Source: Dehalococcoidia bacterium
GTDB taxonomy: Bacteria; Chloroflexota; Dehalococcoidia; Lucifugimonadales; UBA3495
NCBI GenBank assembly: GCA_965220625.1
Contig: CBDCQN010000001.1
Location: forward strand, 156,930 to 220,929
DNA: 64,000 nt
Direction of reading: 5' to 3'
Made by a program: the position numbers and the translations under genes. The notes beneath the pieces were generated by a model. That model had not been told where the DNA came from, did not search any database, and saw only the letters and a program-made list of their open reading frames with translations. This document shows, piece by piece, positions 5,956-31,618 of the stretch. Position 1 is the stretch's first letter, and each line of letters opens with the position of its first letter.

Positions 5956-6000
5956 TGACTGATCCGGCCCAAAGGTTGGTCAGGCTATCCAGGCCGCTCT

Positions 6001-6819
6001 CTAGTAGTAGACCGCTGTGCCGGTACCCCCACCGGCGGCGATAACCTCGCCGGTGACCGCCCAGGCCTTGTCCGAAGCCAGGTATGCGGTGAGGTAGGCG
6101 ATTTCCTCGGAGTCCACCATGCGGCATATGGCGTTGCCCCCGGGCGAGTCGGGGGCGAAGTCTTTAGACTCTATCTCCTCGGCCGTTATCCCCAGCTGGG
6201 CCGCCCTGGCCTCCAGCATTCCGGGAGTGCGTTCGGTGCGTGTGGTGCCGGGGTGGATGCAATTGACCGTGATGCCGAACCGGCCCATCTGGTTGGAGAG
6301 AGTCTTGGTCAGATGGACCATGGCGACGTTGCGCGCCCCGCCGCTGAGGTTGCCGGCGGTACGGCCGTTGCCTCCGCTGATGTTGACTATGCGGCCCCAG
6401 CCATGCTCCTTCATGAAGGGAATCGCGGCGCGGGCGCAGCGAAGGGCCCCTGCATACTTGACGTCGAAGTCGTTGATCAAATCGTCTTCGTTGACGGTGT
6501 CAATGGGACCGACGGCCGATGCCGAGCCGCCGGGCAGAGAAGCGCTGTTGACCAGGATGTGCAGGCCGCCCATGCGTTCGGCGGCTGCGGCCACCACCCG
6601 GTCGACCTGTGCCCGGTCGGTTACATCCACCGCCATGGCGGTGACGGACTGCCCGGTCTCCTCAGCTATCTCTTGGGCCGACCTCTCCAACTCCTCGAGA
6701 GTGCGCGAAACGATCACCACGTCGGCCCCTTCCCGGGCCAGCTCCCTTGCAATGGCCTTGCCGATGCCCCGGCCGCCGCCCGCAACCAGAGATTTCTTGC
6801 CAGCGAGTCCCAAGTCCAT
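6001..6819 (-). CDS. SDR-family oxidoreductase
   Basis: 272 aa. Rossmann motif VAGGGRGIGKAIA and a classical SDR length and layout. Confidence 0.85.
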   Translation of the reverse strand: MDLGLAGKKSLVAGGGRGIGKAIARELAREGADVVIVSRTLEELERSAQEIAEETGQSVTAMAVDVTDRAQVDRVVAAAAERMGGLHILVNSASLPGGSASAVGPIDTVNEDDLINDFDVKYAGALRCARAAIPFMKEHGWGRIVNISGGNGRTAGNLSGGARNVAMVHLTKTLSNQMGRFGITVNCIHPGTTRTERTPGMLEARAAQLGITAEEIESKDFAPDSPGGNAICRMVDSEEIAYLTAYLASDKAWAVTGEVIAAGGGTGTAVYY

Positions 6820-6900
6820 ATCTCAGCCGCCTCCTGACGTTCACAAACCAACATTTACTGAACAAGAACTCGTTCAGCCGTTGTATACTGCCACACTCCG

Positions 6901-8811
6901 GTGATAAATTCATCCTACTCACCCAACACTCCGAAACCATACCTGATTTTGTACGACTACGGACTGATAGGCGACATGTCTTCGGCGGCGCTTGTTGGAA
7001 CCGACGGCTCCGTAGACTGGTGTTGCTTTCCGCGGTTCGACTCTCCCAGCGTATTCGCCGCCGTCTTGGACCAAGAGGCCGGGGGCCGTTTCCGGATCAG
7101 CCCCGCCGGCCGGACCCTCGAGGCCCGGCAGGACTACGAGACCGATACCAACATTCTGGACACCACCTTTACAACCGCCGGGGGCGTCGTCCGCGTCACG
7201 GACTTCATGCCTGTCGCCGATCACGACGACATCCCGGAGACACCGCCGCTTTCCCACCACGAAATCCACCGCATCGTTACCTGCCTCTCCGGGGAGGTCG
7301 AACTGCGCTGCGATTTTCAGCCGAGACCCGACTACGCCCGCGCCTCGCCGGAATTTCGCCCGCTGCGCGGCGACCCGGGCGGCGGGGTGGTCCTCGCTCG
7401 CGGAGGCCGGCAAACCCTGACCCTCCTGGCCAGCGTCCCCCTTGAGATTGACGACCGGGGGGCCAACAGCCAAGCGGTCAACTGCGCCTTCACCCTGTCC
7501 CAAGGCCAGACCGCGACCTTTGTCCTGGCGTACGGCCACCGCCGTCCCGCAAGCCTCAACCGGTACCATACCGCCGAGAAACTCGACCACACGCGGCGCT
7601 ACTGGCTGGAAATGGTAGCCCGAATGAACTACGACGGCCTGTGGCGGGACACGGTGGTCCGCTCCTTCCTGGTCCTTCATCTCATGATGTACCAGCGCAC
7701 CGGGGCCATCGTCGCCGCGCCCACGACCAGCCTGCCTGAGACCATCGGAGGCTCCCGCAACTGGGACTACCGGTTTTCCTGGCTGCGCGACGCCAGCTTC
7801 ACCGTGGACGTCCTCTACCGATTGGGTAACGTTTACGGCGCCGGCCACTACATAGACTGGCTGCTGGAAAAGTGCCAACTGGACCATCGCAAGACACGCA
7901 TCGTGTATGGGGTCAGCCCCAACTCGTCACTCAAAGAATACACGCTCGACCATCTGCGAGGATACGAGGGGTCCAGCCCGGTACGCGTTGGCAACGCCGC
8001 CGACGCGCACCTTCAACTCGACGTCTTCGGAGAAGTCATCCTTTGCATCCACTCCCTGTTCCTGCTTCAAGGAGGGATAGCGGCTGAAGCCTGGGAACTG
8101 GTGCACGCTATGGCCGAAGCCGTTATGGCCAACTGGCAGCGGAAGGACCGGGGTGTTTGGGAAGTCCGAGGCGACGAGCAGCACTTCGTGTATTCCAAGG
8201 TAATGTGCTGGTGCGCCCTGGACCGGGCCGCCGATATCGCCGCCGCCACGGGAAACCGGCAAACGTCGCGCCGCTGGGCTCGGACCGCAGCCCGGATAAA
8301 GTCCGAAATACTGGACTTGGGATGGAGCTCGGAAAAGCAGGCGTTCCGCCAACGATACGGCAGCGAAGCTCTGGATGCTTCTAACCTGGTGATACCCTTC
8401 CTGGGCTTGGTCCCGCGCGACGACCCTCGCCTCCGCCAGAACGTGGACGCCATCGAACGAGAACTGACTGACGGCCCGCTGGTATGGCGCTATCTCCCGG
8501 AAGAGACGGACGACGGGCTGGGAGGCCAGCCGGAGGGCGCCTTCATCCTGCTCAGCTTCTGGCTAATCGGGAACCTGATCTACACTGGTCAGACCGACCG
8601 CGCTTTAGACTACTTCCACGAAATGATTACGAGACAGGCCAACCACCTCGGCTTGTTCGCCGAGATGTTCGACCTGGTCTCCAACCGCCAGCTCGGCAAC
8701 TTTCCGCAGGCATATTCCCACATCGGGCTGATTCACACCGCCCTGAACCTCTCCGGATTCATCGCCGATACCCCCACCAGACGCAGGAGACGCACTGGCC
8801 GCTCCCGATAG
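6901..8811 (+). CDS. Glycoside hydrolase family 15 (glucoamylase/trehalase-like)
   Basis: 636 aa. N-terminal YGLIGDMSSAALVGTDGSVDWCCFPRFDSPSVFAA and the (alpha/alpha)6 region RNWDYRFSWLRDASF are characteristic of GH15. Confidence 0.85.
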   Translation: MINSSYSPNTPKPYLILYDYGLIGDMSSAALVGTDGSVDWCCFPRFDSPSVFAAVLDQEAGGRFRISPAGRTLEARQDYETDTNILDTTFTTAGGVVRVTDFMPVADHDDIPETPPLSHHEIHRIVTCLSGEVELRCDFQPRPDYARASPEFRPLRGDPGGGVVLARGGRQTLTLLASVPLEIDDRGANSQAVNCAFTLSQGQTATFVLAYGHRRPASLNRYHTAEKLDHTRRYWLEMVARMNYDGLWRDTVVRSFLVLHLMMYQRTGAIVAAPTTSLPETIGGSRNWDYRFSWLRDASFTVDVLYRLGNVYGAGHYIDWLLEKCQLDHRKTRIVYGVSPNSSLKEYTLDHLRGYEGSSPVRVGNAADAHLQLDVFGEVILCIHSLFLLQGGIAAEAWELVHAMAEAVMANWQRKDRGVWEVRGDEQHFVYSKVMCWCALDRAADIAAATGNRQTSRRWARTAARIKSEILDLGWSSEKQAFRQRYGSEALDASNLVIPFLGLVPRDDPRLRQNVDAIERELTDGPLVWRYLPEETDDGLGGQPEGAFILLSFWLIGNLIYTGQTDRALDYFHEMITRQANHLGLFAEMFDLVSNRQLGNFPQAYSHIGLIHTALNLSGFIADTPTRRRRRTGRSR

Positions 8812-9111
8812 CTAGCTGGCCCCAAGGGGCGCCCGCTCCAGCCAGTCGGTGGCGATCAGTTCGGTGATTCCCCGGTCTATCGTTACATAATAGGTAACGA
8901 TACTATTAGGCGGGAACTCCAGCTTGGTGCCGGCCCAGTCGTCGGTCTGTTGCGGCGCAATGGTGCCGAAGCCGCCTTTGGCGCTTTCCGGCGGCGGCCG
9001 GTGCCCACTGCCGCCCGCCTGCTTGATACGAACACGTTGGTTGACGTCGAATGTATAGAGTCCGGCCATCACCGCCTCCTCGCCCCCATAATATACCAGC
9101 AACGGGTTCAC
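8812..9111 (-). CDS. Hypothetical small protein
   Basis: 99 aa ORF abutting the GH15 stop in convergent orientation. No recognisable motif, and the start is uncertain (an internal MAGLY is possible). Confidence 0.3.
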   Translation of the reverse strand: MNPLLVYYGGEEAVMAGLYTFDVNQRVRIKQAGGSGHRPPPESAKGGFGTIAPQQTDDWAGTKLEFPPNSIVTYYVTIDRGITELIATDWLERAPLGAS

Positions 9112-9246
9112 CGCAGCGAACCCAAGGGCCGCAGGGGATTTCTTTCTAAGTGTTCAGATTCGGTGTGACACGTCCTCCAACCCTGAACACTTACTAGCCG
9201 TCGTCGGAACGGGGGCGTACAATTCGATCATGCAGGAGGAAATCCC

Positions 9247-9636
9247 ATGAGCACCGTCACCGGCATCAACTCTTCCGGCGAGATTCCCCAGTTGGATCTG
9301 TCTCCGGAATCGCTGCCCCTGACGACCAACGAGTTTGGGGTCGTGAGGATCACCGGAACCCGGATAGGATTGGACGTATTGGTTGAAGCTTACCGCTTGC
9401 ATGGACGCACTCCCGACCAGATCGCATACGATTACAGGCTGAAGCTGGGAATCGTGTATACGCTGATAGGCTTCTACCTGCGGCGAAAACCGGAAGTCGA
9501 TGAGTACATAAACGGTTTGTATAGGCACGCAGAAAACACGTTCGCTGAGCTGGAAGCAAAAGGGCTCTCGTCACCCGATTGGGAAGAGCGCCTTCACGCC
9601 CGAGCAAAGGCCGATCAGTCCCGCATCGGGGATTAG
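9247..9636 (+). CDS. DUF433-domain protein (antitoxin-like partner)
   Basis: 129 aa. Core RITGTRIGLDVLVEAYRLHGRTPDQIAYDY...IVYTLIGFYLRRKPEVDEYI matches the DUF433 helix-turn-helix pattern. Lies directly upstream of a DUF5615 gene. Confidence 0.6.
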   Translation: MSTVTGINSSGEIPQLDLSPESLPLTTNEFGVVRITGTRIGLDVLVEAYRLHGRTPDQIAYDYRLKLGIVYTLIGFYLRRKPEVDEYINGLYRHAENTFAELEAKGLSSPDWEERLHARAKADQSRIGD

Positions 9637-9642
9637 GCGCCG

Positions 9643-10005
9643 GTGCCCAGCTTCTTGGCCGACGAAAACATCGAACCGAGCATCATCGAAGGACTTAAGC
9701 GCCTACTCCCGGCGGTCGATATCGTTACGGTAAGTGAAATTGGCTTGGCTGCGATAGACGATCGGATAATTCTTGAATGGGCAGCGGTAAGCGGACGTAT
9801 CGTAGTTACTCGTGATGTTGACAGCATGATCGGCTACGCCCGAGACCGTGTCAGCGCAGGCCTGTCGATGCCCGGCATGGTTGTCATATCATCATCAAGG
9901 TCATTTGCTTCCATTATAGGGTCCGTGTTTAATATGGCCGAATATGGACTGCCTGGAGAATGGGAAGGACAAATATTGTATGCAGGGTCCAAGCCGATTG
10001 GATAG
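9643..10005 (+). CDS. DUF5615 / PIN-like (Mut7-C-like) nuclease-fold protein (toxin-like partner)
   Basis: 120 aa starting MPSFLADENI, the hallmark FLADENI N-terminus, with VVTRDVD later. There is a 6 nt gap after the DUF433 gene. Confidence 0.6.
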   Translation: MPSFLADENIEPSIIEGLKRLLPAVDIVTVSEIGLAAIDDRIILEWAAVSGRIVVTRDVDSMIGYARDRVSAGLSMPGMVVISSSRSFASIIGSVFNMAEYGLPGEWEGQILYAGSKPIG

Positions 10006-10037
10006 CTGCGCGATGCTGGAGTGAATAAGGAGTTAAC

Positions 10038-11015
10038 ATGGCTACGCTCGTAACTGGCGGTACCGGGTTCGTTGGGGCGAATATCGTCAGAGAGTTGGCG
10101 CGGGCCGGCCACCAGGTGGTGTGCTACGACCTGGTTCCCGCCAGCGCTCTTGTTCAGGATTTTGTCCAGGATTGCGCGGACAGCATCACGTTCGTCCAAG
10201 GAGACATCCTGGACAAAGACGCGGTGGCTGGGCTGGCGGGCCCCCATTCCATCGACAAAATCGTTCACGCCGCCGTCTACACAGTGAACGATCTCAGCTT
10301 GGAGACGGAACGCGGCAACGTAATCGTCGACATCAATTTCGCCGGCACCGCCAACATGCTCGAATTGGCCCGCGGCGTATCGCCCGGCCGTTTCGTTTAC
10401 GTCAGCTCCGGTTCAGCCTACGGGTCGGCGGCGGGCAGCGACCAGACGTTCAACGAAGAACTGCGGGTCGCGCCCGACAATCTGTACGGGATCACCAAAT
10501 ACGCCAGCGAGTTGATAACCCGCCGTTACGGCGAACTGTACGGTTTCTCCACCGCCAGCGTCCGGCTCAGCACCCCCTACGGCCCCATGGAACGGGTCAC
10601 CGGCCACCGGGCGGTAATGTCGGCTCCCTACCAATGGACCCGGCAGGCGGTGCGGGGCGAAGACCTGATTTCCCACGACCTCGGTGAGGGACGGGACTAC
10701 ACCTACGTGGCGGACATCGCCAACGGTATCCGGACCGTTCTGGATGCCCCAACCCTGCCTCATGACCTCTATAACCTGACCAATGGCACGTGGTACACCT
10801 TCGGGCAGATAATCGACACCATCCGGGACCTCTCACCCGGCTCCAGCGTGGTCGAAGTCCCTCCCTCGGAAGCGGTCCCTGACTCCGGAACGCCCCGCGG
10901 CCCCCTTTCCGGCCACCGCTTGTACCATGACTTGGGCTGGACCCCCAGCTACGACCTGCGCTCCGGCCTCGCCGACTACCTGGAATGGCGCCGCAACTCC
11001 GGCTTCCTCGACTGA
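10038..11015 (+). CDS. NAD-dependent epimerase/dehydratase family protein
   Basis: 325 aa with AAGGAG before the ATG. TGGTGFVGANIVREL Rossmann motif and a YGITK (YxxxK) catalytic motif. Confidence 0.85.
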   Translation: MATLVTGGTGFVGANIVRELARAGHQVVCYDLVPASALVQDFVQDCADSITFVQGDILDKDAVAGLAGPHSIDKIVHAAVYTVNDLSLETERGNVIVDINFAGTANMLELARGVSPGRFVYVSSGSAYGSAAGSDQTFNEELRVAPDNLYGITKYASELITRRYGELYGFSTASVRLSTPYGPMERVTGHRAVMSAPYQWTRQAVRGEDLISHDLGEGRDYTYVADIANGIRTVLDAPTLPHDLYNLTNGTWYTFGQIIDTIRDLSPGSSVVEVPPSEAVPDSGTPRGPLSGHRLYHDLGWTPSYDLRSGLADYLEWRRNSGFLD

Positions 11016-11081
11016 CCCGATTTGCCCGCCGAGAGAGCCGCGTTTATCCTTACTTCCCCTGCGGCCTCCGGGGTGTCCGCC

Positions 11082-11114
11082 GTCATACCGGCGAAAGCCG
11101 GTATCCACAGGGTG
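11082..11114 (+). repeat. REP-like palindromic element (ATACCGGCGAAAGCCGGTAT core)
   Basis: GTCATACCGGCGAAAGCCGGTATCCACAGGGTG. An inverted copy lies at 39889-39921 and a variant pair at 38001-38031 / 38120-38150. Confidence 0.7.
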
Positions 11115-11264
11115 CGGCGGGGCTTCTCACCGGGACTGACCAATTACGTACCAAACACCATTTGGTATTTCGTCACCAATACCCTCGTTCGGTTCCCCTC
11201 GGAGCTTTCCGAGGCTCTTCCTACGGGGTACAATCCATCAACCAACCCACCGATGAGGTGAGCC

Positions 11265-12992
11265 GTGCCCACCCTGGAGTTCAAAGGCAAGCAGATTGTC
11301 TACGCCCACCACCTGACCATCCCCTATCGCCCGCTGGTCCCCGACCCCGCCAAGTCGCTGAACCCCGCCGAAGCAGACGACAACCTCATCATCCACGGCG
11401 ATAACCTCAAGGCACTCAAAGCCCTGCTGCCCCGCTACGCCGGCCGCGTCAAATGCATCTACATCGACCCGCCCTACAACACCGGCAGCAACGAGGGCTG
11501 GGCCTACAACGATAGAGTGAACAGCCCGCTGATGAAAGAGTGGCTCCATCAGACGGTTGACAACGAAGACTTGGAACGCCACGACAAGTGGCTCTGCATG
11601 ATGTGGCCCCGCCTGCAACTGCTCCGCGAACTGCTGGACGACGACGGCATCATCTTCATTTCCATTGACGACAACGAACAGCATCACCTACGGCTGTTGA
11701 TGGATGAAGTATTCGGCGAAACCAATTTCATAGCATCTTTTGTATGGGAAGGAACAGCCAAGAATGATGCTAGGTTTGTATCTGTAGGGCATGACTATGT
11801 GCTTACCTATGCCAAGAGTTTCGACGATGTAAAAACAAACACGAAACGATGGCGCGTACTCAAAGAAGGCATCGACGACATTCAAAAGTGCGTTGAAACC
11901 TTGAAAGAACAGCATGGGGATGATTACGTAGCAATTTCAAGCGATCTAAAAGAATGGTACAGGTCTCTCCCGCGTAATCATAAGGCGTGGCAACACAGGC
12001 ATTACAATTGGGTCGACGAGAATGGGGTTTATTTTCCAAGCGACATATCATGGCCAGGTGGCGGCGGGCCCAGATATGAAGTACTACACCCAATTTCGGC
12101 GAAACCCGTGACAGTGCCCGCCAGGGGATGGGTATTCCCACATAAACAGACAATGGATGACGCTGTCCAAGCAAATCGCGTTCATTTCGCAGGTGACGAG
12201 AACGGCGTCCCAAATTTGAAACGCTACCTTCACGAAACAAGCGAACAAGTAGTAACCAGTGTTTTTTATCAAGATAGGAGAGCGGCCCATCAGAACCTAA
12301 GAAGGATCCTTGGTGATATCGAATTTGAATATCCAAAAGATGAAAGGGTCATTGGCAGACTAATAGATACTGTTTCCTCCGATGGGGACATCATCCTCGA
12401 CTCATTCGCTGGCTCCGGCACCACGGCTCACGCCGTCCTCGCTCTGAACAAAGAAGACGGCGGCAACCGCAAATTCATCCTGGCAGAGTGCGAAGACTAC
12501 GCTGACCGCATCACCGCCGAGCGGGTGCGCCGGATCATAAACGGCGTGCCGGGCGCCCGGGACGCCTCCCTTCGGGAAGGGCTGGGTGGCTCTTTCACCT
12601 ATTGCACCCTCGGCGACCCCATAGACATGGAAAAGATGCTGACAGGGGAGGCGCTGCCCGAATACCCGGCGCTGGCCGCTTACCTGTTGCATATCTCGGA
12701 CGGCATATCCGCCGGGGAATCGGTCCTGGCGCGTCGGAACGACGATGGTCTGTTCTACCGCGACGATAAGACGGCCTACTATCTGCTGTATGAACCGGAT
12801 ATAGCTTGGCTGGAAAGCAACGAGTCTATGCTGGACGAGCACCGGGCCGGGCGCATACGCGACGCCAACCGGACTGAAGGCCGGAAAGCCATCGTCTTCG
12901 GCGCAGGCAAGTACATGGGCCAGCGGTTCCTTACGGACATGGGCATCACCTTTTGCCAGTTGCCCTATGAAATGCACCGGGCCGGGCAGTAG
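11265..12992 (+). CDS. mod: Type III restriction-modification methyltransferase (Mod), beta-class N6-adenine/N4-cytosine type
   Basis: 575 aa. Motif IV IYIDPPYNTG lies N-terminal and motif I LDSFAGSGTTAHAV lies C-terminal, with a variable region between them. Immediately followed by res. Confidence 0.9.
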   Translation: MPTLEFKGKQIVYAHHLTIPYRPLVPDPAKSLNPAEADDNLIIHGDNLKALKALLPRYAGRVKCIYIDPPYNTGSNEGWAYNDRVNSPLMKEWLHQTVDNEDLERHDKWLCMMWPRLQLLRELLDDDGIIFISIDDNEQHHLRLLMDEVFGETNFIASFVWEGTAKNDARFVSVGHDYVLTYAKSFDDVKTNTKRWRVLKEGIDDIQKCVETLKEQHGDDYVAISSDLKEWYRSLPRNHKAWQHRHYNWVDENGVYFPSDISWPGGGGPRYEVLHPISAKPVTVPARGWVFPHKQTMDDAVQANRVHFAGDENGVPNLKRYLHETSEQVVTSVFYQDRRAAHQNLRRILGDIEFEYPKDERVIGRLIDTVSSDGDIILDSFAGSGTTAHAVLALNKEDGGNRKFILAECEDYADRITAERVRRIINGVPGARDASLREGLGGSFTYCTLGDPIDMEKMLTGEALPEYPALAAYLLHISDGISAGESVLARRNDDGLFYRDDKTAYYLLYEPDIAWLESNESMLDEHRAGRIRDANRTEGRKAIVFGAGKYMGQRFLTDMGITFCQLPYEMHRAGQ

Positions 12993-13004
12993 GGCAGGCG
13001 CGGC

Positions 13005-15545
13005 ATGGAAATGAAAGAATACCAGGGCAACGCCCTCGACGCCTTCACCCGCTGGCTGGACACGCTGGCCGAGGCGCAAAGGCAGTCGGAGGCCGCTGTC
13101 GCCGCCCTGCAAAACGTCCCCGGCGTCGCCATCCCCGGCGAGATCCGCAACTATCCCAAGACCGCTTGGGAACAGTTAAAGCAATCGGGAGGGGTGGCCG
13201 AGAACGCTGGCCCTTACGTTGACCGCACCGACGAGGCTGGGCGGCCCATTCCCCACGTCTGCTTCAAGGTTCCCACCGGCGAGGGCAAGACGCTGCTGGC
13301 CGCCGCCGCCCTGAAGCGGCTGCACCGGCAGACCGGCCTGGTCCTCTGGATAATGCCGACCAACGCCATCTATGAACAGACCAAGAGAGACCTGAAGAAC
13401 AAGGAACATCCCTACCGGCAGCTATTGGAGATAGCCAGCGGCGGGCGCGTCAAGCTGATGGAGAAGGACGACCCGTTCACCCAGGCCGACACCGCCAACT
13501 CCCTCTGCGTGATGCTGCTCAGCCTGCCCGCGGCCAACCGGCACAGAAACCGCGAGTTTTTGCGAATGTTCCGCGACTCCGGGCGCTACCCCACGTTCTT
13601 TCCCGATAACGACGACGCTTTGGGGGACGGTAAGCTGCTGAGCGACTGCCCGGACCTGGAGCGGACTTCCGAGGGCGGTCCGGTGAAGCACAGCCTGTTC
13701 AACATATTCAAGATGCTGCGCCCCGTGGTAGTTCTGGACGAGGCGCACAAAGCCTATGGCGCCCGCAAGCCGGAGGCCAACGAAGAATTCGCCCGCGCCG
13801 TGAGCCGGCTCGACCCCAGCCTCGTGATCGAGTTGTCGGCAACGCCGAATCGCGGCATCAGCAACTTGCTGGTGGACATACCGGGCCCGGTGCTGAAAGA
13901 TGCGGAAATGATCAAGGCCCCGGTTAGGGTGACATCCTATCCAACTGCCGATTGGCAGAACACATTGAGCGAAGCCGCTGAACGGCTGGACACCCTGGAA
14001 ACTGAAGCGCGGTCTCTGCAAAACAACGGCGGAGACTACATCCGGCCCATCGGCGTCGTGCGCGTGGAACGAACCGGCAACGACCAGCAGGACGGTGACC
14101 ATATCCATGCCGAAGATGTTCGCCGGTTTCTTGTGCAAAATTTGGCCGTTCCCGAAGACGCTGTACGGGTGAAATCCAGCTACAACGATGAGTTACGCGG
14201 CGAAAATCTGCTGTCGGAATTTTCGCCAGTGCGTTGGATAATCACCAAAAATGCCTTGATGGAGGGCTGGGACTGCTCATTCGCCTACGTCCTGGTGATG
14301 CTGGACAACACCCAGGCCCAACGCGCCATCACCCAACTGGTGGGGCGGGTGCTGCGGCAGCCCTACGCCCGGCGTACACACAGAGAACCCCTTGACCAGT
14401 GTTATGTGTACTGCTGGAACACCGATGTAAGCGTCGCTGTAACTCAAGTCAAGAACGGGCTTGAGCAGGAGGGCTTGAGCGGCTTGGGCGACAACGTGAT
14501 TGGGGCGTCAGCCAACCTGATGCAGGTCATGGTAGAAAGGCGGGAGAAGTTTCGCGGCCAGAACATATTCTTGCCGCTGGTGCTCCACAGGGACGGGGAC
14601 AATTGGACGGACTTGGATTATCAACGCCACATTTTGCCGAAGATCTCTTGGGATGCCATCGCGGAACTCGACCCGCAAAGCTCTTTGCCAGATCCGGCCA
14701 AAAGGCAAACAGCATCGGTAGACGTTGGCGACACATTACCGGTTTTTCATGATTCCCAGGAACTGAATATTGATAAGGTCGTCGATGTGTCATGGTTCGC
14801 CCGACGCCTGTCTGATATAACTCCCAATGCGTGGCAGGCATCCCGCATGGCTGAAAAGTTAATGGAACGGCTCCGGACAGCCGGAGAATCTGATGAGCAG
14901 ATTTACGACCGTCGCTCTTATCTCTCATATGCGCTACGCGAGCACGTCAAGGATGAAGTAGAATCGCGGGCGGAGCGGATTTTCCACGATAAAATGCGGC
15001 AGGGAGAAATCCGCTTTGACCTGGAGACCGGGCTGCCCAACTACCAAATGAAAGAGTCTTACGAAATCTCAGTGCCGGACACCTATGGGTTAATGATCGG
15101 GAATGGCGGCCGTCAACTCCAGCTTAATCTGTTTGAGCCGTTATACACCCAACAGTTCGACTCTCCTCTTGAGCGTAACTTCGCCCGCTACTTGGACGAG
15201 GTTAAGGCGTTGCAGTGGTGGCACCGGGTAGCAGCGCGACAGGCCGGGGATTATTTCCTTCGAGGCTGGAAGCAAAACCGCATTTGGCCCGATTTTATAG
15301 CCATGGCAGGCAGCACAGCGGGCAAACCTCACATCTTGGTATTCGAGACCAAAGGGGAAGGTTTTAGCGGCAACCCGGACACCGAGTACAAACGCAAGGT
15401 CCTCGAAACCCTCGAAGGCGCATTCAACGCCGTAGGAACAATGGAAATTTGCGACGGCCCGGCCAAAGGCACTTTCCGCCTCGTGTTCAGCGAGGAAGAG
15501 TTCTCCCAAGCCTTGGTCAACCTGCAATGGGTTTACACCACCTGA
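13005..15545 (+). CDS. res: Type III restriction enzyme Res subunit (SF2 helicase + PD-ExK nuclease)
   Basis: 846 aa. Walker A-like KVPTGEGKT and DEAH box VVLDEAHKA. C-terminal nuclease motif WPDFIAM...ILVFETKGE. Confidence 0.9.
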   Translation: MEMKEYQGNALDAFTRWLDTLAEAQRQSEAAVAALQNVPGVAIPGEIRNYPKTAWEQLKQSGGVAENAGPYVDRTDEAGRPIPHVCFKVPTGEGKTLLAAAALKRLHRQTGLVLWIMPTNAIYEQTKRDLKNKEHPYRQLLEIASGGRVKLMEKDDPFTQADTANSLCVMLLSLPAANRHRNREFLRMFRDSGRYPTFFPDNDDALGDGKLLSDCPDLERTSEGGPVKHSLFNIFKMLRPVVVLDEAHKAYGARKPEANEEFARAVSRLDPSLVIELSATPNRGISNLLVDIPGPVLKDAEMIKAPVRVTSYPTADWQNTLSEAAERLDTLETEARSLQNNGGDYIRPIGVVRVERTGNDQQDGDHIHAEDVRRFLVQNLAVPEDAVRVKSSYNDELRGENLLSEFSPVRWIITKNALMEGWDCSFAYVLVMLDNTQAQRAITQLVGRVLRQPYARRTHREPLDQCYVYCWNTDVSVAVTQVKNGLEQEGLSGLGDNVIGASANLMQVMVERREKFRGQNIFLPLVLHRDGDNWTDLDYQRHILPKISWDAIAELDPQSSLPDPAKRQTASVDVGDTLPVFHDSQELNIDKVVDVSWFARRLSDITPNAWQASRMAEKLMERLRTAGESDEQIYDRRSYLSYALREHVKDEVESRAERIFHDKMRQGEIRFDLETGLPNYQMKESYEISVPDTYGLMIGNGGRQLQLNLFEPLYTQQFDSPLERNFARYLDEVKALQWWHRVAARQAGDYFLRGWKQNRIWPDFIAMAGSTAGKPHILVFETKGEGFSGNPDTEYKRKVLETLEGAFNAVGTMEICDGPAKGTFRLVFSEEEFSQALVNLQWVYTT

Positions 15546-15569
15546 TAGCCGGAACGGGAAGCCCCGCCG

Positions 15570-15680
15570 GGCCTTGCGACACTTGTCCCTTCCCAACGCT
15601 GGGAACGATGCTTCACCATAGTGCCTTTCCAGAATAGTGCAATCCTGATTCTGAATCTAAATTACACAGGGCCTCAAAAG
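15570..15680 (-). repeat. ~111 bp intergenic repeat, copy A (inverted relative to copy at 39954-40064)
   Basis: Hand alignment of the reverse complement with 39954-40064 gives about 13 mismatches in 111 nt. Contains GATTCAGAATC and TTGCAC-N16-TATGGT. Confidence 0.8.
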
Positions 15681-15708
15681 TCTTCCACCGTCTCCCTCCT
15701 CGGCCTCC

Positions 15709-15746
15709 GGGGTGAAAATGGGGGAAAATGAGCGGAAATGAGAGGG
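15709..15746 (-). repeat. Short intergenic repeat (CTCATTTCCGCTCATTTYC core), inverted copy at 37556-37591
   Basis: Reverse complement is CCCTCTCATTTCCGCTCATTTTCCCCCATTTTCACCCC, against CCTCCCATTTCCGCTCATTTCCGGCCATTTTGCCCC at 37556-37591. Confidence 0.7.
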
Positions 15747-15899
15747 AAACTAAAAAAACCGACGCGTTACCCAAAGGGCTCCAGTTGCCGGCGCGAAAAA
15801 ATCTGACTTAACACTCTCGGACACTCGCGGCAAAAACCCCGATTGACCGCTGGTTCACGAAAAATTAAAATGCGCTTATTCCCACACGGGAGAGGACTG

Positions 15900-17348
15900 A
15901 TGCAGGATACGAACATCGAATTGGTCGCCCATCTGCTGCGGCGGGCCGGGTTTGGGGCCAACCGCGACGAACTGGCCTCCCGCGCCTCCGATGGGTATGA
16001 GGCCACGGTGGAGGAATTGCTGAATCCCAAGGAGGAACAACGGATCAGCGACTACTTGGTGCGCCGTTTCCACCCGGAATTCTCGGGGATGATGGGCCCC
16101 TTCGCCCCCGGCGAGAACTGGCTGTACCGGATGGCCACCACCACGGCGCCCCTGCAGGAAAAGATGACCCTTTTCTGGCACGGGATATTCGCCACCGGAT
16201 ACAACAAGGTGACCCACGGCAAGGCGCTGTCCGACCAGACACGGATGTTCCGCCGCCACGCCATGGGCAGCTTCCGCACCCTGCTGTTGGAAATGTCCAG
16301 AGACCCGGCCATGATCATCTGGCTGGACAATCAAGACAACCACAAGGGCGCCATTAACGAGAATTTCGGCCGGGAGTTGCTCGAACTGTTCTCGATGGGA
16401 GTGGGCAACTACACCGAAGCGGACATCAAGGAGTGCGCCCGCGCCTTCACCGGCTGGACCATCGCCAACCGCCAGTACATGGAACTGCGCTCTCAAAGGG
16501 ACTCCGACTGGCCCTACGGCCGCATCTCTTGGCACTTCGAGTTTCACCCCGAAGACCATGACGACGGCGAGAAGGAGTTCTTGGGGGAGCGAGGTAACTT
16601 CAACGGCGGCGACATCGTCGACATCATTTGCAGGCAGCCAGCCACCGCCCGGTTCATCGCCCGCCACCTGTACAGCTTCTTCGTGGCCGACGAACCCCCG
16701 GTGCCGGAGTGGCCCTACACCCCGCCGCAGGACCCCGAAGCCATCGAAACGCTGGTGCGGGCCTACTTCGACAACGACTACAACATCGGCGCGGTGTTGC
16801 GGGCGCTGTTCAACTCCGGCTTCTTCCAGTCCTCCGAGGCCCGGTACGCCAAGGTCAAGAGCCCGGTGGAGCTGGTCGCCGGGGTGCTTCGCCTGACCGG
16901 CGAATTCGACCGGCCCCGCTACGAAATCCTGGAACGGTTCAACCAGGCGTCGTACATGGGCCAGATACTCAACAATCCGCCCAGCGTGGAAGGATGGCAC
17001 CAAGGCACCGAGTGGCTGGACAGCGGAACTCTGGTTGAGAGGATCAACTTCGCCAGCCAGCAGATAGGCGATACCGAAAAACCGGGCATCCAGGCGATGA
17101 TCGGCCGCATCGGGGCCGGCCTACTGCACGATCCGGTGGGGGAGACGACTTCCGCCGAACGTCTGGTGGACGCCTGCCTGGAGGAGGTGGGGGCGCTGTC
17201 GGTGAAAGAAGACACCCGGAGGGTGCTGGTGGACTTCGCCGCCCACGGCTCGGCTCAACAATCCGGCCAAGGCGCCAACACAGACCGCCAGCACATCGCC
17301 GACGTTCTCCAGATGGTGGCCGCCACCCAGGAATTCCAGCGGTCGTAG
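15900..17348 (+). CDS. DUF1800-domain protein
   Basis: N-terminus VAHLLRRAGFGANRDEL plus FWHGIFAT, both typical of DUF1800. Start placed at ATG 15900 (GGGAGAGG upstream). The ORF track starts at TTG 15843. Confidence 0.8.
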   Translation: MQDTNIELVAHLLRRAGFGANRDELASRASDGYEATVEELLNPKEEQRISDYLVRRFHPEFSGMMGPFAPGENWLYRMATTTAPLQEKMTLFWHGIFATGYNKVTHGKALSDQTRMFRRHAMGSFRTLLLEMSRDPAMIIWLDNQDNHKGAINENFGRELLELFSMGVGNYTEADIKECARAFTGWTIANRQYMELRSQRDSDWPYGRISWHFEFHPEDHDDGEKEFLGERGNFNGGDIVDIICRQPATARFIARHLYSFFVADEPPVPEWPYTPPQDPEAIETLVRAYFDNDYNIGAVLRALFNSGFFQSSEARYAKVKSPVELVAGVLRLTGEFDRPRYEILERFNQASYMGQILNNPPSVEGWHQGTEWLDSGTLVERINFASQQIGDTEKPGIQAMIGRIGAGLLHDPVGETTSAERLVDACLEEVGALSVKEDTRRVLVDFAAHGSAQQSGQGANTDRQHIADVLQMVAATQEFQRS

Positions 17349-17385
17349 TCAGTCCGCTCTCCCTCCGGGAGGCCGGCATAAGCAG

Positions 17386-17422
17386 TCCCCTCTCCCTCGG
17401 GGAGACGGTTACGGTGAGGGCG
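17386..17422. repeat. REP-like hairpin element (CCTCTCCCTCGGGGAGA...GGTGAGGGCG)
   Basis: About 80 percent similar by eye to 54521-54560. Lies in the DUF1800/Uma2 intergenic gap. Confidence 0.6.
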
Positions 17423-17456
17423 TCCCACTCAAGCCAGTCAGGTAGGTGTTGTCCCA

Positions 17457-18107
17457 GTGGCCACTCAGAGCTTGAAACCGCGACAGGGTTCGACGCAGAC
17501 ACTGCCGGAGCCTTATGGTCCCATCGTACTTCGGCTAGCCCCCGCCGTGCGGATAACCAGCGAACAGTTGGAAGAGATCTGTGCGCTGAACCGTGATATT
17601 CGCATAGAGCGCAACGCCGAAGGAGATTTGGAGCTGATGCCCCCTACCCTCCCAGTTACCGGGAACCAGGACGCCAACATTACTGCCGATTTGGCTCATT
17701 GGGCGAGGGCAGACGGCAGGGGCGTAGCCTTCAGCTCTGCAGCAGGTTTCACGCTGCCCAATGGAGCGCTGCGTTCCCCCGACGCCTCGTGGATCCTCAA
17801 GTCCCGCCTGACGGAATTGACCGCCGAAGAGAAGCGCGGGTTTTCTCGTATTTGCCCCGACTTCGTTATCGAATTGCGCTCCAGTTCCGATAGACTGAGC
17901 GTGCTGCGCCGCAAGATGGAAGAGTACATGGAAAACGGAGCGCGGCTGGGCTGGCTGATAGACCCGCTTGACCCTCTGCGCCGAGTGTACGTCTACCGTC
18001 CCGGCGCCGAAGTCGAGATACTGGAGCGTCCGGAAACCCTTTCCGGAGAGCCGGAGTTGCCGGGCTTCAAGCTGGACCTGAAACCCGTCTGGGAGCCGGC
18101 TTTCTGA
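17457..18107 (+). CDS. Uma2-family (DUF820) putative endonuclease
   Basis: 216 aa. PD-ExK-like CPDFVIELRSSSD and the C-terminal LPGFKLDL motif typical of Uma2. Confidence 0.75.
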   Translation: MATQSLKPRQGSTQTLPEPYGPIVLRLAPAVRITSEQLEEICALNRDIRIERNAEGDLELMPPTLPVTGNQDANITADLAHWARADGRGVAFSSAAGFTLPNGALRSPDASWILKSRLTELTAEEKRGFSRICPDFVIELRSSSDRLSVLRRKMEEYMENGARLGWLIDPLDPLRRVYVYRPGAEVEILERPETLSGEPELPGFKLDLKPVWEPAF

Positions 18108-18155
18108 CTAACGCTCAGGCCGGCTCCCGCGAAAACCAGATGCCGAGGCGCAACT

Positions 18156-19169
18156 ATGACCACTGCACAGAAGACGAATTTCCTGGAATATGACCGGACC
18201 ATGGGCATGACGGTCATGGAGGGCCGCGGCTTTTATTACCCCGTGGATACCGCGGTGGGCAAGGACGACCGTCTCTACGTGATCAGCCGCAGCAAAGAGG
18301 AGACGACACGCGGCATTCGCGTCACCATGTGCGACGTGGACAGCGGCTATTTCGGCAACTTCGGCGCCTACGGCTACGCAGGCGGGCAGTTCGTCTGGCC
18401 CGCCTGCGGGGCGGTCGACAACCGGGGCCGGTTCTTCATCAGCGATGAGAAGCTCAACCGGGTCACAGCCTACGACGATACCGGCAACTACCTGTTCCAT
18501 TGGGGCGAGTCAGGCTCCGGCCCAGGAGAATTGGATACCCCGTCTGGCTTGGCGTTCGATAGGGAGAACAATATCTACGTCGCCGATACATACAACAACC
18601 GGGTGCAAAAATTCACCGCCGACGGCCGCTTCCTGCTTGCCATCGGCGAACACGGAAGCGAAGGCGTCAGCCTTCCTTGGGGACTGGCCACGGATACCCG
18701 GAACAACGTGTACGCCGCCGACTTCGGCAACGACTGTATCAAGAAATATTCCTCCCAAGGTGAATTCCTGGCTGCGTTCGGCTCATCGGGCCGCGGCGAC
18801 GGCGAGTTCACCCGCCCGGCCTCAGTGGCGGTGGACCATGACGGCTACATCTACGTAGCCGACTGGGGCAACGAACGGGTGCAGGTGTTGGACTCCGAGG
18901 GCAATTTCGTGACGAAACTGCGGGGCGAGGCGACACTGTCTCAATGGGCGTCCAACTTCCTTAGCATCAACGTAGAGGAAGCCGCCGCCCGGGGCACTGC
19001 CGACCTCGACATGGAAATCGATTACGTCGTCGACGACCCACACGAAGAATCGTCCCACATAGAGAAATACTTCTGGTGCCCGGTTTCGGTTAAACTGGAC
19101 AGCCAAGGCCGTCTGTACGTGACCGAGACCAACCGGCACCGGCTCCAGGTATACCGTAGGAGCGGGTGA
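18156..19169 (+). CDS. NHL-repeat beta-propeller protein
   Basis: 337 aa with six repeats ending in YVADxxNxRVQxF-type strands (DTYNNRVQKF, DFGNDCIKKY, DWGNERVQVL, ETNRHRLQVY). Confidence 0.8.
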   Translation: MTTAQKTNFLEYDRTMGMTVMEGRGFYYPVDTAVGKDDRLYVISRSKEETTRGIRVTMCDVDSGYFGNFGAYGYAGGQFVWPACGAVDNRGRFFISDEKLNRVTAYDDTGNYLFHWGESGSGPGELDTPSGLAFDRENNIYVADTYNNRVQKFTADGRFLLAIGEHGSEGVSLPWGLATDTRNNVYAADFGNDCIKKYSSQGEFLAAFGSSGRGDGEFTRPASVAVDHDGYIYVADWGNERVQVLDSEGNFVTKLRGEATLSQWASNFLSINVEEAAARGTADLDMEIDYVVDDPHEESSHIEKYFWCPVSVKLDSQGRLYVTETNRHRLQVYRRSG

Positions 19170-19227
19170 CGCTCCAGGCCTGAAAACGGACCAAGGACCA
19201 CCAACTCAATCCTGAAGGAGCAGGAAA

Positions 19228-20361
19228 ATGGTATCGACAAAGAAAGACCGTTCACTGGTTGTCATCGAACTCGCCGGCGGTAACGACGCCCTGAATACTC
19301 TGGTCCCCTACAACAACGGCCTTTACTACGACTACCGCCCCAGCATTGGAATCCAGCAGGGGGACGTACTGGCGATCAACGGCGAGTACGGCTTCAACCC
19401 CAACATGCAGGCGGTTAAGGACCTGTGGGACCGGGGGGAACTGGCCATCATCAACGGGATCGGCTATCCCCAGCCCAACCGCTCCCACTTCCGTTCCAGG
19501 GACATCTGGTATACCGCCGAGCCGGAGAGCATCGGCAATCAGGGTTGGCTGGGCGCGGCCATTCGCGACTTGGACGCCAAGGGCGAGAACGTCCTGACCG
19601 GCGTCAACTTCGGCCGGGGCCTTCCCCGTGCGCTGGTCTGCCGGGGCGTGCCGGTTGCCTCAGTGGGCAACCTTGAGACCTACGGCCTGCTCCCCGACAT
19701 GAGCGACGAGAACGTACGGCACAATGCCCTGGACGCCTTGGGCCGCATGTACGGCCCCGCTGGCGGCAGGGACATTGTGGCCCAGACGCTGGCCGAGAAC
19801 GGCTCCCAGGCCCTGATGGGCGCGGACATCCTGCGCACCGCTCCCGAACGCTACTCCTCCAGCATCGAGTACGCCGATACCCCCATTTCCCAGAGCTTGA
19901 AGAGTGCCGCCCAAGTGATGAGCGCCGGTTTGGGGACCAGGGTGCTATATGCCCAGCACGGTAGCTTCGACACCCACAGCAACGAGCTTCAGTCCCATGC
20001 CAAGCTGTGGCAGGACGCTTCTGCCGCCATTGCCGACTTCACTGAGGACCTGAAGGAACAGGGCCTGTGGGAAGAAACGCTGGTGCTGGTGTGGTCCGAG
20101 TTCGGGCGCCGCGTGCGTGACAACGGCACCGGCTGCGACCACGGCTCCGGCGGAGTCGCGTTCGTCTTAGGCGGTTCGGTGGCGGGCGGCCTCTACGGCC
20201 AGTACCCATCGCTAAGGGATGCGGACCTCTCTGAAGGCGATATGGCCTACACCACGGACTTCCGGACCACCTATGCCACCGTCTTGGACCGCTGGCTGGG
20301 CCTGGACCCGGACCCCATAGTCCACGGCCAGTTCGAGCAGTTCGAGTTTATTACCCGTTAA
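19228..20361 (+). CDS. DUF1501-domain (sulfatase-fold) protein
   Basis: 377 aa with AAGGAG upstream. Motifs LAGGNDALNTLVPY, RSHFRSRDIW, HGSFDTHS and GTGCDHG. Confidence 0.85.
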   Translation: MVSTKKDRSLVVIELAGGNDALNTLVPYNNGLYYDYRPSIGIQQGDVLAINGEYGFNPNMQAVKDLWDRGELAIINGIGYPQPNRSHFRSRDIWYTAEPESIGNQGWLGAAIRDLDAKGENVLTGVNFGRGLPRALVCRGVPVASVGNLETYGLLPDMSDENVRHNALDALGRMYGPAGGRDIVAQTLAENGSQALMGADILRTAPERYSSSIEYADTPISQSLKSAAQVMSAGLGTRVLYAQHGSFDTHSNELQSHAKLWQDASAAIADFTEDLKEQGLWEETLVLVWSEFGRRVRDNGTGCDHGSGGVAFVLGGSVAGGLYGQYPSLRDADLSEGDMAYTTDFRTTYATVLDRWLGLDPDPIVHGQFEQFEFITR

Positions 20362-20388
20362 CCGTCTGGTTCACCTCCGTGAACAAAG

Positions 20389-20423
20389 AAACCGCCGGGG
20401 GCTTGAACAGCCCTCGGCGGTTT
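20389..20423. terminator. Bidirectional hairpin between convergent genes
   Basis: AAACCGCCGGGGGC-TTGAACA-GCCCTCGGCGGTTT, a 14 bp stem with one mismatch. It lies between the DUF1501 stop and the LLM oxidoreductase stop. Confidence 0.5.
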
Positions 20424-20451
20424 CTGCGCTCATGGTGCTTGTATATAGGGG

Positions 20452-21720
20452 CTATCTGCCGGCTGGCACGGCCAAGGGGCGGGAGCCCGGCAGACGCTCG
20501 TAGGGGCCGGGGAGTTCCAGCTCTTCGGATATGCTGCGCATCGCCGGGAGGACCTCTTCGCCCAAGAGCCGGATGCTGGTCATACGGTCCTCGTGGCTGA
20601 CCGGGCCGTGGTGGTGCCACATGGCGAAGATACCGGGGCGGACCGTCTCCAGGATATGACGGATTTTGGGGATGATGCTGTCCGGCGTACCGCAAATCAG
20701 TTGCATGTTGTCTTGCTCGCCTTGGAACCGACTGTAAATCTGTTCCCGGCTGGCCTGTATTCCTTCCGGTGTATCGGTGGGCTTCAGGACAAACGCTTCT
20801 TCCCCGCTGTTGGGGTCAACGGAGACCCGGGCCAAGCGCCGGGTGGCCGCCTTGGAGTTGTAGCCCGGAGGGAACATCCACTCGGGACGGGCGAAGGCGT
20901 TAATGCCGCCGCCGTACATGAAGGCCCGGCCCATCTCCTGGGCCTTTTCTTCTGTTTCAGCTACTACCACTCGTTGCAGGTAGCCGAAGTTCTCGGGGCC
21001 AAATTCGTAGCCCTCTTCGGCCGCCGTATCTTTGTACAGCTTCACCATTTCCATGGTCGGTTCAAGGAAGGTGGCCAAGGCCAGGTAGGGATAACGGTGG
21101 CGGGCGCACCAGATAACTGTTTCCGGGCTCACCAGCCCTGGGATCCACATCTGAGGGTAGGGCTTCTGTACCGGCAACACCCACGGGTTCACGTGGCGGT
21201 AGTGGTAGTGCTTGCCTTCGAAGCGGAATGGGCCGGGAGTGGTCCAGGCCTTGACGACGAAGTCGTGGGCCTCGTTGAACAGCTCCCGGTTGTAGGCGGG
21301 GTTGGCATTGTTGTAAATCGACTCGCTGCCGGCGCCCCTGACCCAACCGGGTACCAGACGGCCACCGGAAATCATGTCGATCATAGCCAGTTCTTCGGCC
21401 AACCGCAGGGGGTCGGCCACCGGCAGCGGGTTGCCCAACAGCACTATCTTGGCCCGCTCCGTGATTCTGGCCAGCACAGCTGCCTCAATGTTCATCACGG
21501 AGCCCATGCAGAACGGAGTGCCGTGATGCTCGTTCAGCATCACCCCGTCAAAGCCAACCTTTTCGGCGTAGACAGCCTCGTCAAAATAGGAATTGTAGAG
21601 CTGGCCGCCCACTTCCGGATTGAGATGTTCGTTGGGTATGCCGAAATAACCGGCGTTCTTGATGATCTCGTCTTCCGGAACATCGTAATAGGGGCGCTCG
21701 GTGAACATCATGATGTGCAT
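20452..21720 (-). CDS. LLM-class (luciferase-like) flavin-dependent oxidoreductase
   Basis: 422 aa with AGGAGG upstream. GFDGVMLNEHHGTPF and the TIM-barrel LLM layout. Confidence 0.85.
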   Translation of the reverse strand: MHIMMFTERPYYDVPEDEIIKNAGYFGIPNEHLNPEVGGQLYNSYFDEAVYAEKVGFDGVMLNEHHGTPFCMGSVMNIEAAVLARITERAKIVLLGNPLPVADPLRLAEELAMIDMISGGRLVPGWVRGAGSESIYNNANPAYNRELFNEAHDFVVKAWTTPGPFRFEGKHYHYRHVNPWVLPVQKPYPQMWIPGLVSPETVIWCARHRYPYLALATFLEPTMEMVKLYKDTAAEEGYEFGPENFGYLQRVVVAETEEKAQEMGRAFMYGGGINAFARPEWMFPPGYNSKAATRRLARVSVDPNSGEEAFVLKPTDTPEGIQASREQIYSRFQGEQDNMQLICGTPDSIIPKIRHILETVRPGIFAMWHHHGPVSHEDRMTSIRLLGEEVLPAMRSISEELELPGPYERLPGSRPLAVPAGR

Positions 21721-21744
21721 GGCGATGCCTCCTGAGTTTTACTC

Positions 21745-22542
21745 TTACTCCAAGAATCCTCGGAGCCGGCTTAGGAACTGGGATGTTTGCTCAGTCTCCG
21801 GACGGTGGCCGCAGTCGTCAATGACCGCCAACTCGGAGCCCGATATGGACTTGTTATAGAGATGACCGGCCGCCAGCGGGACAATAGCGTCGTCCCGGCC
21901 CCAGATAACCAACGTGGGCAGTCCTTCCACTCCCTCGAGCAGCGGTCCCAGGCTGGGGTTGTGCATGTAGGGTTTCCAGGCCAAACGTGACGCCTCGGCC
22001 CGGGCGTCTTCCCAAGCCTCGAACTGTTCGGCCGTCTCGTCGCCTCCGTAGAGGGACTGGAATTCCGGGTTGGCAGCGGCATCGCGGACGCTGGCGTTCA
22101 GATAGTTGCGCGCCGTCACCACGAACAGGTCCATAATCTCGCCTTCCGGCGGCCTGAGGCCGGTGGGCGCCACCAAGACCATTCGATCGAACTGGCCCGC
22201 GTCCGCCGCAGCCATCTCAGCGGCGATCCAACCGCCCAATGAGAAGCCGATTACATCAACCGGGCCCAACGCCAAATCCCGCAACATCCGCGAGTAGAAC
22301 CCGGCCAGGTCCCTCACGCCGCTGATCCAATCGATCCGGGGCAGCGCTCCGAATCCAGGGTGTACCGGTATCAAGAGTTGATGGTCTTGGGACAAGTCGG
22401 CGTGCCAGGCCAACCAACCGGGATGACCCAACTCTTCATGCAGGACCAAGACCGGCCGACCGGTACCGCCCTTATACATAAGGACGCTGCCGCCGCCTAC
22501 GTTGATTGTGCTTTCGGTATACCCATTGGAGGAAACTGGCAT
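21745..22542 (-). CDS. Alpha/beta-fold hydrolase
   Basis: Nucleophile elbow GFSLGG and HELGHPGW near the N-terminus. Start moved to ATG 22542, which has GGAGAGG upstream. The ORF track start is 22608. Confidence 0.8.
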   Translation of the reverse strand: MPVSSNGYTESTINVGGGSVLMYKGGTGRPVLVLHEELGHPGWLAWHADLSQDHQLLIPVHPGFGALPRIDWISGVRDLAGFYSRMLRDLALGPVDVIGFSLGGWIAAEMAAADAGQFDRMVLVAPTGLRPPEGEIMDLFVVTARNYLNASVRDAAANPEFQSLYGGDETAEQFEAWEDARAEASRLAWKPYMHNPSLGPLLEGVEGLPTLVIWGRDDAIVPLAAGHLYNKSISGSELAVIDDCGHRPETEQTSQFLSRLRGFLE

Positions 22543-31462: not shown

Positions 31463-31618
31463 GCGTCACCGGCCTGATTTAGGCCGTTTTCGTAAAGCCC
31501 GGCCGATTCAGCCGGACTCGCCAGAGTAATTCGATTTTAGAGCAATCTCGTCCCTTTGAACAGTGAGAGACATTCCCGATTGGAGTTGGAGTGCCGCCGA
31601 CTTAGGGTTCCTGCCGGT

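Follow-up and report, generated by a model that had tools for sequence, protein, structure and literature searches.

Different target-recognition domains between conserved methyltransferase cores in a Type III restriction-modification operon of a Dehalococcoidia bacterium

In Type III restriction-modification (R-M) systems, the adenine methyltransferase Mod reads a short asymmetric site via a central target-recognition domain (TRD). Its partner Res, a helicase-superfamily ATPase that also bears a PD-ExK nuclease, cannot recognise sites by itself and depends on binding to Mod for its cleavage of unmethylated DNA. Cleavage by Type III enzymes is ATP-dependent and requires a pair of unmethylated sites in inverse orientation, and methylation affects one strand only. 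Here, we describe a mod-res operon of this kind in a 64,000-nt stretch of a Dehalococcoidia genome (GenBank assembly GCA_965220625.1, contig CBDCQN010000001.1, positions 156,930 to 220,929 of the forward strand; hereafter the window, with positions counted from its first letter). The TRD-coding block of its mod gene has very probably been exchanged as a unit, on a resident mod-res scaffold, by homologous recombination.

Such exchange is known from the modA gene in Neisseria and in Haemophilus influenzae, which has conserved 5′ and 3′ regions and recognition domains acquired in block from other species; the modA recognition domain has a GC content below that of both flanks, and the flanks are scarred (PMC3311624, Gawthorne et al. 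2012). Signs of block TRD exchange, a low-GC domain and scarred flanks are all present in the mod gene of the window, which differs from modA in lacking a simple-sequence repeat tract and any sign of phase variation. Moreover, the hosts of the window's family are uncultured environmental bacteria, probably sponge-associated, and not human pathogens, and its scaffold is common to many phyla. Recognition domains also move between mod genes in Helicobacter pylori, according to the excerpted text of Furuta & Kobayashi (2012; PMC3467074). The likeness lies in TRDs that move as units between methyltransferase genes, through recombination at conserved flanks; the moves described in that excerpt are between non-orthologous genes of one genome, whereas here they would be between genomes, with no second copy in the window. 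For sponge metagenomes, an enrichment of R-M systems, including Type III, and their transfer between distant lineages are described in the excerpted parts of two reports (PMC5099237, Horn et al. 2016; PMC8163846, Robbins et al. 2021). Cross-lineage R-M transfer fits the host range of the window's family, but the unit in those parts is the whole gene or system, and neither exchange at the level of domains nor TRD composition is reported there.

The enzymological reference points are EcoP15I and EcoP1I. The structure of EcoP15I Mod (4ZCF chain A) aligns with Mod aa 37-411, central domain included (E 8e-64), and the likeness extends to the mod-res order and to the helicase and C-terminal PD-ExK motifs of Res. 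However, the TRD is only ~37% identical to P1-like plasmid Mods, too low for specificity transfer, and the window Res falls in another PADLOC REase_III model, with no match among PDB sequences and so none supporting its nuclease motif. Overall, specificity change through TRD block exchange is already established, with modA as the precedent from 2012. What may go beyond the reports cited here is the breadth of the present case (many phyla, dozens of alleles and a near-identical scaffold) together with a host-independent synonymous GC deficit.

The operon and the junctions of its recognition domain

Together, mod and res form an intact EcoP15I-type Type III R-M operon (Table 1). In PADLOC, Mod matched MTase_III PDLC03640 (E 3e-172) and, across its full length, PDLC03644, while Res matched REase_III PDLC03653 (E 3e-189 over aa 1-838). 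The order DPPY, variable region, FAGSGTT is that of the beta class, as a preliminary description of the window, made from its letters alone, had read it. Res contains the helicase motifs GEGKT (aa 92), DEAH (aa 245) and SATP (aa 278) and a C-terminal nuclease-type motif of the PD-(D/E)xK kind, PD(762)...ETK(781-783), recognised by pattern alone. Both genes lie on the same strand, mod first, with 12 nt from the mod stop codon to the res ATG, and the mod-then-res arrangement was likewise found in the related loci L001, L002, L087, L089, L090 and L091.

Relatives were found by a search for full-length Mod homologues, and identity was then determined region by region; looking up the exact Mod sequence of the window gave no contig. 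One class of homologues (P0040, P0042, P0044, P0078 and others) was 82-95% identical to Mod in aa 1-130 and 77-94% in aa 386-450, with only 25-31% identity over aa 131-385; a second class (P0001, P0002, P0005) was 84-95% identical in aa 131-385, with more diverged flanks. The contig that carries P0040 (L001) and the window are syntenic (epimerase, mod, res, DUF1800, DUF1501), and blastn aligned the two at 95.8% identity over 7344-11719 and at 93.4% over 12389-22000. Between these junctions, no DNA similarity was detectable; the window has 669 bp there and L001 564 bp, a length difference of 105 bp, and the resulting TRDs of 223 aa in the window and 188 aa in the syntenic relatives are remote homologues (24% aa identity between the window and L001, E 2e-5). 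L087, also syntenic with the window (mod, intact res, DUF1800, Uma2, NHL), has its junctions where L001 has them, as do L088 and L089, two loci with close cores but no synteny. In all four comparisons, blastn similarity stopped at 11719-11749 and restarted at 12389-12390, the right junction lying ~15 nt ahead of the FAGSGTT codons. We thus confirmed that, as had been proposed for the window, the specificity-determining domain has been replaced: at the same locus, L001 and L087 have another TRD, and the junctions on either side of it (11719 and 12389) are identical.

The TRD itself is most closely related to that of L002 (P0001), a mod-res operon in an unrelated context whose homology to the window covers the operon only (11239-15511, 84.9%). 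Its TRD was 94.0% identical to that of the window (629/669 nt; 95% aa), compared to 83.9% for the mod flanks (826/984; Fisher p 1.5e-10) and ~79-87% for the operon outside the TRD. In L090 (P0002), identity to the window was 85% in the TRD, 80% in the 5′ core, 69% in the 3′ core and 64-70% in res. Overall, L002, L090, L091 and L003 have the window's TRD type attached to homologous cores, with the joins in the same places. Compared separately, TRD and core therefore have different nearest relatives (L002 vs L001 and L087), and their histories disagree.

To delimit the tract, we counted the sites unique to the window, to L001 and to L002, given here in that order. The sister relation of the window and L001 held at 11265-11600 (7/4/40) and at 12621-12992 (9/11/46); it was gone at 11601-11719 (10/13/7) and at 12389-12620 (26/17/9), and from ~11665 the window tracked L002, not L001. 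Because the sister relation is lost beside the TRD on both sides, the exchanged tract is probably about 1 kb long and comprises the non-homologous TRD plus a diverged homologous flank on each side.

The course of events that we propose is that the TRD-coding block 11720-12388 would have been swapped as one unit through homologous recombination, with crossovers in conserved methyltransferase motifs, at ~11600-11720 on the left and within 12389-12620 on the right. The resident mod-res scaffold would thereby have come to bear another TRD allele than its closest relatives. Since Res depends on Mod for site recognition, the exchange of a TRD changes methylation and restriction together, and in a presumably active enzyme both would have been redirected to a different DNA sequence.

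The composition of the block is equally distinct. The segment 11651-12400 has the lowest GC content (0.46) among all 750-bp windows in the 64 kb, the next lowest being 0.501, and lies at about -3.8 sd of the distribution (mean 0.616, sd 0.041). The GC counts made by hand in the preliminary description were reproduced exactly (0.417 at 11701-11760, 0.467 at 12181-12240 and 0.600 at 11401-11460), and the drop in the variable region that it had reported was found to be beyond chance and to concern synonymous sites only. GC content at third codon positions (GC3) was 0.76-0.88 before aa ~125, 0.34-0.50 across aa ~130-385 and 0.70-0.82 thereafter, so that the GC and codon profile across mod is not uniform. 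At first and second codon positions (GC1 and GC2) the profile was flat along mod while GC3 fell, which indicates that amino-acid composition is not the cause of the dip. At 0.43 over 220 codons, mod has the lowest GC3 among the 38 likely genes of the window (next lowest 0.56), while its cores (0.78-0.82) equal the other genes.

Exchange of recognition domains across the family

With one genome scanned per species, at least 596 relatives were obtained, and 80 loci were kept. Nearly all kept loci are metagenome-assembled genomes (MAGs) labelled Dehalococcoidia/Chloroflexota, Poribacteria, Latescibacterota, Spirochaetia, Acidimicrobiia or Binatia, with Nitrospirales, cyanobacteria, Alpha- or Gammaproteobacteria and 'Spongiisociaceae' as further labels, and Cenarchaeum symbiosum was the source of one protein match in the homologue search. 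Judged by taxon names, this set suggests sponge microbiomes.

Throughout the family, the identity of the TRD was decoupled from that of the cores. Pairwise core and TRD identities were uncorrelated (r = -0.05, 202 sequences), and in 1477 of the 2005 pairs with a core identity of at least 85%, the TRDs were less than 40% identical. Among the 54 members (≥85%) of the window's core cluster, 13 TRD clusters were present, with 28 TRD clusters overall, and single TRD clusters were found across phyla. The pattern is that of a mosaic mod in both directions: close relatives had conserved ends with unrelated centres, and the same TRD was found on diverged scaffolds. The window itself is probably of the class Dehalococcoidia, since its housekeeping flanks were 70-82% identical (nt) to those of two Dehalococcoidia MAGs, whereas cores at least 83% identical occurred in Latescibacterota, cyanobacteria, Alphaproteobacteria and Acidimicrobiales. 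The notion of a resident enzyme, put forward in the preliminary description, holds for this lineage only; beyond it, operons with cores at least 85% identical were found in other contexts and other phyla, and the mod-res operon itself moves between phyla.

Close relatives thus probably methylate and restrict different motifs from one chromosomal locus, which would mean strain-level gene-flow barriers and phage host-range differences in an uncultured lineage. With hundreds of loci in at least 10 phyla, cores that remain ≥85% identical in several of these phyla and dozens of TRD alleles, the family looks like a good natural data set on the exchange of recognition modules between distant bacteria, as well as on the reasons why such modules stay AT-rich.

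Two copies of this Type III family with different TRD clusters (L016 and L080) were observed in one Poribacteria genome, OZ241845.1, so that TRD exchange within a genome is possible in some hosts.

Alternative explanations and the low GC content

Several points weigh against a block exchange by homologous recombination. The window and its relatives were assembled from metagenomes, and the donor was not found: a protein search with the TRD alone gave fragmentary proteins, none closer than P0001 of L002, the best matches in plasmids (46% aa) and phages (50% aa) were not plausible as donor or as mobile reservoir, the TRD had no match in IMG/VR viral contigs, and two exact-pattern scans of JGI metagenome contigs, for the window-specific scar and for a TRD stretch common to L002, returned nothing. 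Unique changes lie beside the junctions in the window and L001 alike, because of which neither the direction of the swap nor the lineage in which it occurred can be fixed. The polarised changes in the TRD (5 AT>GC vs 8 GC>AT) are too few sites to decide on amelioration, and the low GC of the TRD gives no independent support for a recent import, does not date the swap and does not point to a low-GC donor. The first of these points raises the possibility that the mosaic is an assembly artefact, in which reads of two co-occurring strains were joined across conserved mod cores. The window, L001, L002 and L087 all come from metagenomes, the L001 contig has 1x coverage, and cores that are 85-95% identical around a variable block are a classic assembler trap. 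However, the reading frame is unbroken, the same TRD-core joins occur independently in L002, L090, L091 and L003, the junctions are identical in four comparisons, and the window sequence next to the right junction is unique (26 window-only sites in 12389-12620) and not L001-like sequence spliced to L002-like sequence, all of which makes an artefact highly improbable. Harder still to credit is that no exchange took place and that a hypervariable TRD diverged in place under diversifying selection, its low GC arising through fast AT-biased mutation. The distant homology of the two alleles does point to a common fold and an ultimate common ancestor, but between such close relatives divergence in place cannot give flanks that are 89-96% identical on either side of a TRD with 0% detectable DNA similarity, a different length and base-sharp junctions, and it is contradicted also by the 94% identity of the TRD to that of L002, an operon that is otherwise more diverged. 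An alternative explanation, unlikely in our view although less so than these two, is that the entire mod-res operon, beyond the TRD alone, is a recently acquired foreign element at this locus. The exact limits of the homology to L002 in an unrelated context, the cores at least 83% identical in distant phyla and the repeats on both sides of the operon (see below) are consistent with it; against it stand the core GC3, which is that of the other window genes, and the presence of the operon at the same site in three relatives with chromosomal flanks 94-96% identical. Since the site is shared, the gain of the operon predates the split of these relatives, and the TRD difference is later or separate. 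We therefore retain the block exchange of the TRD as the explanation of the locus.

What the low GC of the exchanged TRD means is a separate matter, and here the preliminary description was right about block exchange, but low GC is weaker evidence of foreign DNA than it had assumed. TRD GC3 was more than 0.1 below both cores in 71/83 family loci from many phyla, a near-universal trait with a mean deficit of 0.24 (sd 0.10; Wilcoxon p 4e-15) and no difference at first and second positions. For the three classes of hosts with GC above 0.5, core GC3 equalled a rough estimate of host-gene GC3; it was slightly higher (0.57 and 0.51 vs a rough host estimate of 0.48) for hosts below 0.5. TRD GC3 in turn followed host GC at a constant offset (slope 0.94, r 0.68), an offset that was kept inside single allele clusters common to ~45%-GC Poribacteria and ~63%-GC Dehalococcoidia. 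A single low-GC donor would predict a flat TRD GC3, which was not seen. Likewise, the step from low GC to foreign origin is weakened because the alternative TRD allele in L001 is as low in GC as that of the window and most family TRDs are equally AT-rich. It may well be, although we stop short of calling it probable, that the swap is real and that the low GC is a steady-state trait of family TRDs, not the mark of a recent low-GC import, with possible causes in an exemption of the non-homologous cassette from GC-biased heteroduplex repair or in a behaviour of the cassettes like that of accessory DNA, which tends to be AT-richer than its host. The host-tracking offset and the L001 allele favour this, as does the lack of an AT>GC excess in the window TRD, and a similar pattern, with a smaller TRD GC deficit, was seen in plasmid mod genes of Rhodococcus and Pseudarthrobacter and has been reported for modA12 (PMC3311624). 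However, the E. coli P1-like mod showed no offset, the host GC3 baseline is rough, above all for low-GC hosts, and TRD GC3 reached 0.74-0.85 in L004, L008, L026, L041 and L076, so that amelioration happens and the offset is not obligatory. Two of these loci carry the same TRD type as the window (GC3 0.82 in L004 and 0.85 in L008), which shows that the protein does not call for a low GC. As to causes, turnover may be faster in TRDs than in cores, which would leave the TRDs always less ameliorated, or TRD segments may have a lower compositional equilibrium of their own, for example if GC-biased heteroduplex repair acts on the homologous arms only. More tentatively, and with doubts that we would put higher, the AT-rich TRD could be not a donor footprint but the mark of a cross-phylum pool of at least 28 cassettes, probably sponge-centred, that are swapped onto a highly conserved Type III scaffold and retain, irrespective of host GC, a stable deficit of ~0.24 in synonymous GC. 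GC-biased repair acting on the conserved homology arms, and not on the non-homologous cassette, is one possible cause of such a pool-wide deficit.

Further features of the operon and its surroundings

Table 1 Coordinates of the features discussed, as positions in the window
Feature	Position	Strand	Description and basis
mod	11265..12992	+	575 aa, intact; Type III beta-class N6-adenine DNA methyltransferase; PF01555 E 6e-31
Motif IV DPPY, catalytic, in the 5′ conserved core	11466..11477	+	aa 68-71; translation and alignment to the EcoP15I IDPPYNTG block
TRD cassette	11720..12388	+	aa ~153-375, 223 aa; GC 0.46, GC3 0.43; no DNA similarity to the allele of the syntenic relatives
Motif I FAGSGTT, AdoMet-binding	12405..12425	+	aa 381-387; translation and junction alignment; 3′ conserved core begins ~15 nt upstream
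Probable exchanged tract, TRD with diverged homologous 'scars' in the adjoining core	11601..12620	+	Unique-site counts
res	13005..15545	+	846 aa, intact; Type III restriction subunit; PF04851 E 3e-14
GC-poorer 3′ half of res, no swapped cassette	14100..15545	+	GC3 0.57-0.67; identity to L001/L087 unbroken
13-mer GGCCTCCGGGGTG, upstream copy	11063..11075	+	In a 23-nt direct repeat, 83% identical; brackets the operon
13-mer GGCCTCCGGGGTG, downstream copy	15702..15714	+	Exact match to the upstream copy

The 3′ half of res had also been described as GC-poorer than its helicase half. The difference is real but patchy and without sharp edges (GC3 of 0.83, 0.86, 0.62, 0.77, 0.57 and 0.67 in six successive segments), and a comparable drop was found in only 14/61 family loci. 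This half of res was 94-100% identical to L001 and 96-100% to L087 without a break; with such identity to L087, it is not a cassette. The 3′ end of mod and the 5′ end of res (12465-13300) were 79-89% identical to L087, compared to 94% for the chromosomal flank, which suggests further recombination tracts within the operon, without a specificity cassette in res.

No simple-sequence repeat of the phase-variation type was detected in mod, so that the gene does not resemble a phasevarion; the sole tandem arrays are of ~2-3 copies (14472-14490 and 15710-15742) and fall within res or downstream of it. Neither blastn nor tblastn revealed a second copy of mod or of the TRD in the window, and inverted repeats were just short and weak, so that the window gave no sign of intragenomic TRD shuffling. 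A search against NCBIfam gave sub-threshold matches only, the antisense open reading frames (ORFs) overlapping mod and res had no Pfam match, and promoter and terminator scans stayed at chance level.

The C-terminal ~125 aa of Mod (aa 451-575; 12615-12989) form a second variable module. The homologues P0046-P0055 and others were ~65% identical to Mod in the N-terminal core and TRD, compared to 21-27% in this module, which may co-vary with Res. In L001, res is split into three ORFs of 388, 385 and 79 aa (5556-8091 of that locus), on the contig of 1x coverage mentioned above, and the split may reflect sequencing error rather than a pseudogene. In L088, two small genes, one encoding a HicB-like antitoxin, lie between mod and res (7662-8447 of that locus).

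The operon is bracketed by repeats. The 13-mer GGCCTCCGGGGTG occurs just twice in the window, once on each side of the operon, and two or more matches were obtained in 4/100 shuffles. In addition, 11080-11148, upstream of mod, matches 39923-39855 (88%), and 15570-15689, downstream of res, matches 40064-39947 (87.5%). At 39855-40064 the two pieces adjoin, the downstream piece followed by the upstream piece, with an SBP_bac_5 gene on one side and a HEAT-repeat gene on the other. The operon thus either has a partial copy of a dispersed repeat on each side, or 39855-40064 looks like a junction of joined ends. A hairpin-forming element, CATACCGGCGAAAGCCGGTATCC, lies upstream of mod at 11080-11108 and again at 38002-38029 and 38122-38149; it was 93-100% identical in several Dehalococcoidia/Chloroflexota MAG loci (L010, L012, L020, L033) and looks like a REP-type intergenic repeat.

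Three tRNA genes at 31385-32719 (Trp-CCA, Arg-CCT and Ala-CGC) have 94-97% identical counterparts upstream of the L002 R-M operon. These short matches outside the operon had been considered as candidate mobile repeats, which was rejected once they proved to be tRNA genes. The second-lowest-GC region of the window (49721-52025 on the minus strand; 0.50-0.53) encodes a PLD-like domain protein of 306 aa and a protein of 474 aa that bears an Mrr_cat restriction-endonuclease domain; it may represent a further defence islet. At 9247-10005, two genes upstream of mod and in a patch of GC 0.50-0.56, DUF433 and DUF5615 genes form a pair; such domains are typical of toxin-antitoxin-like pairs. Downstream, a gene for a putative endonuclease of the Uma2 family (17457-18107) lies between the DUF1800 and NHL-repeat genes; it is present in L087, and L001 has a shorter Uma2 gene in the equivalent position.

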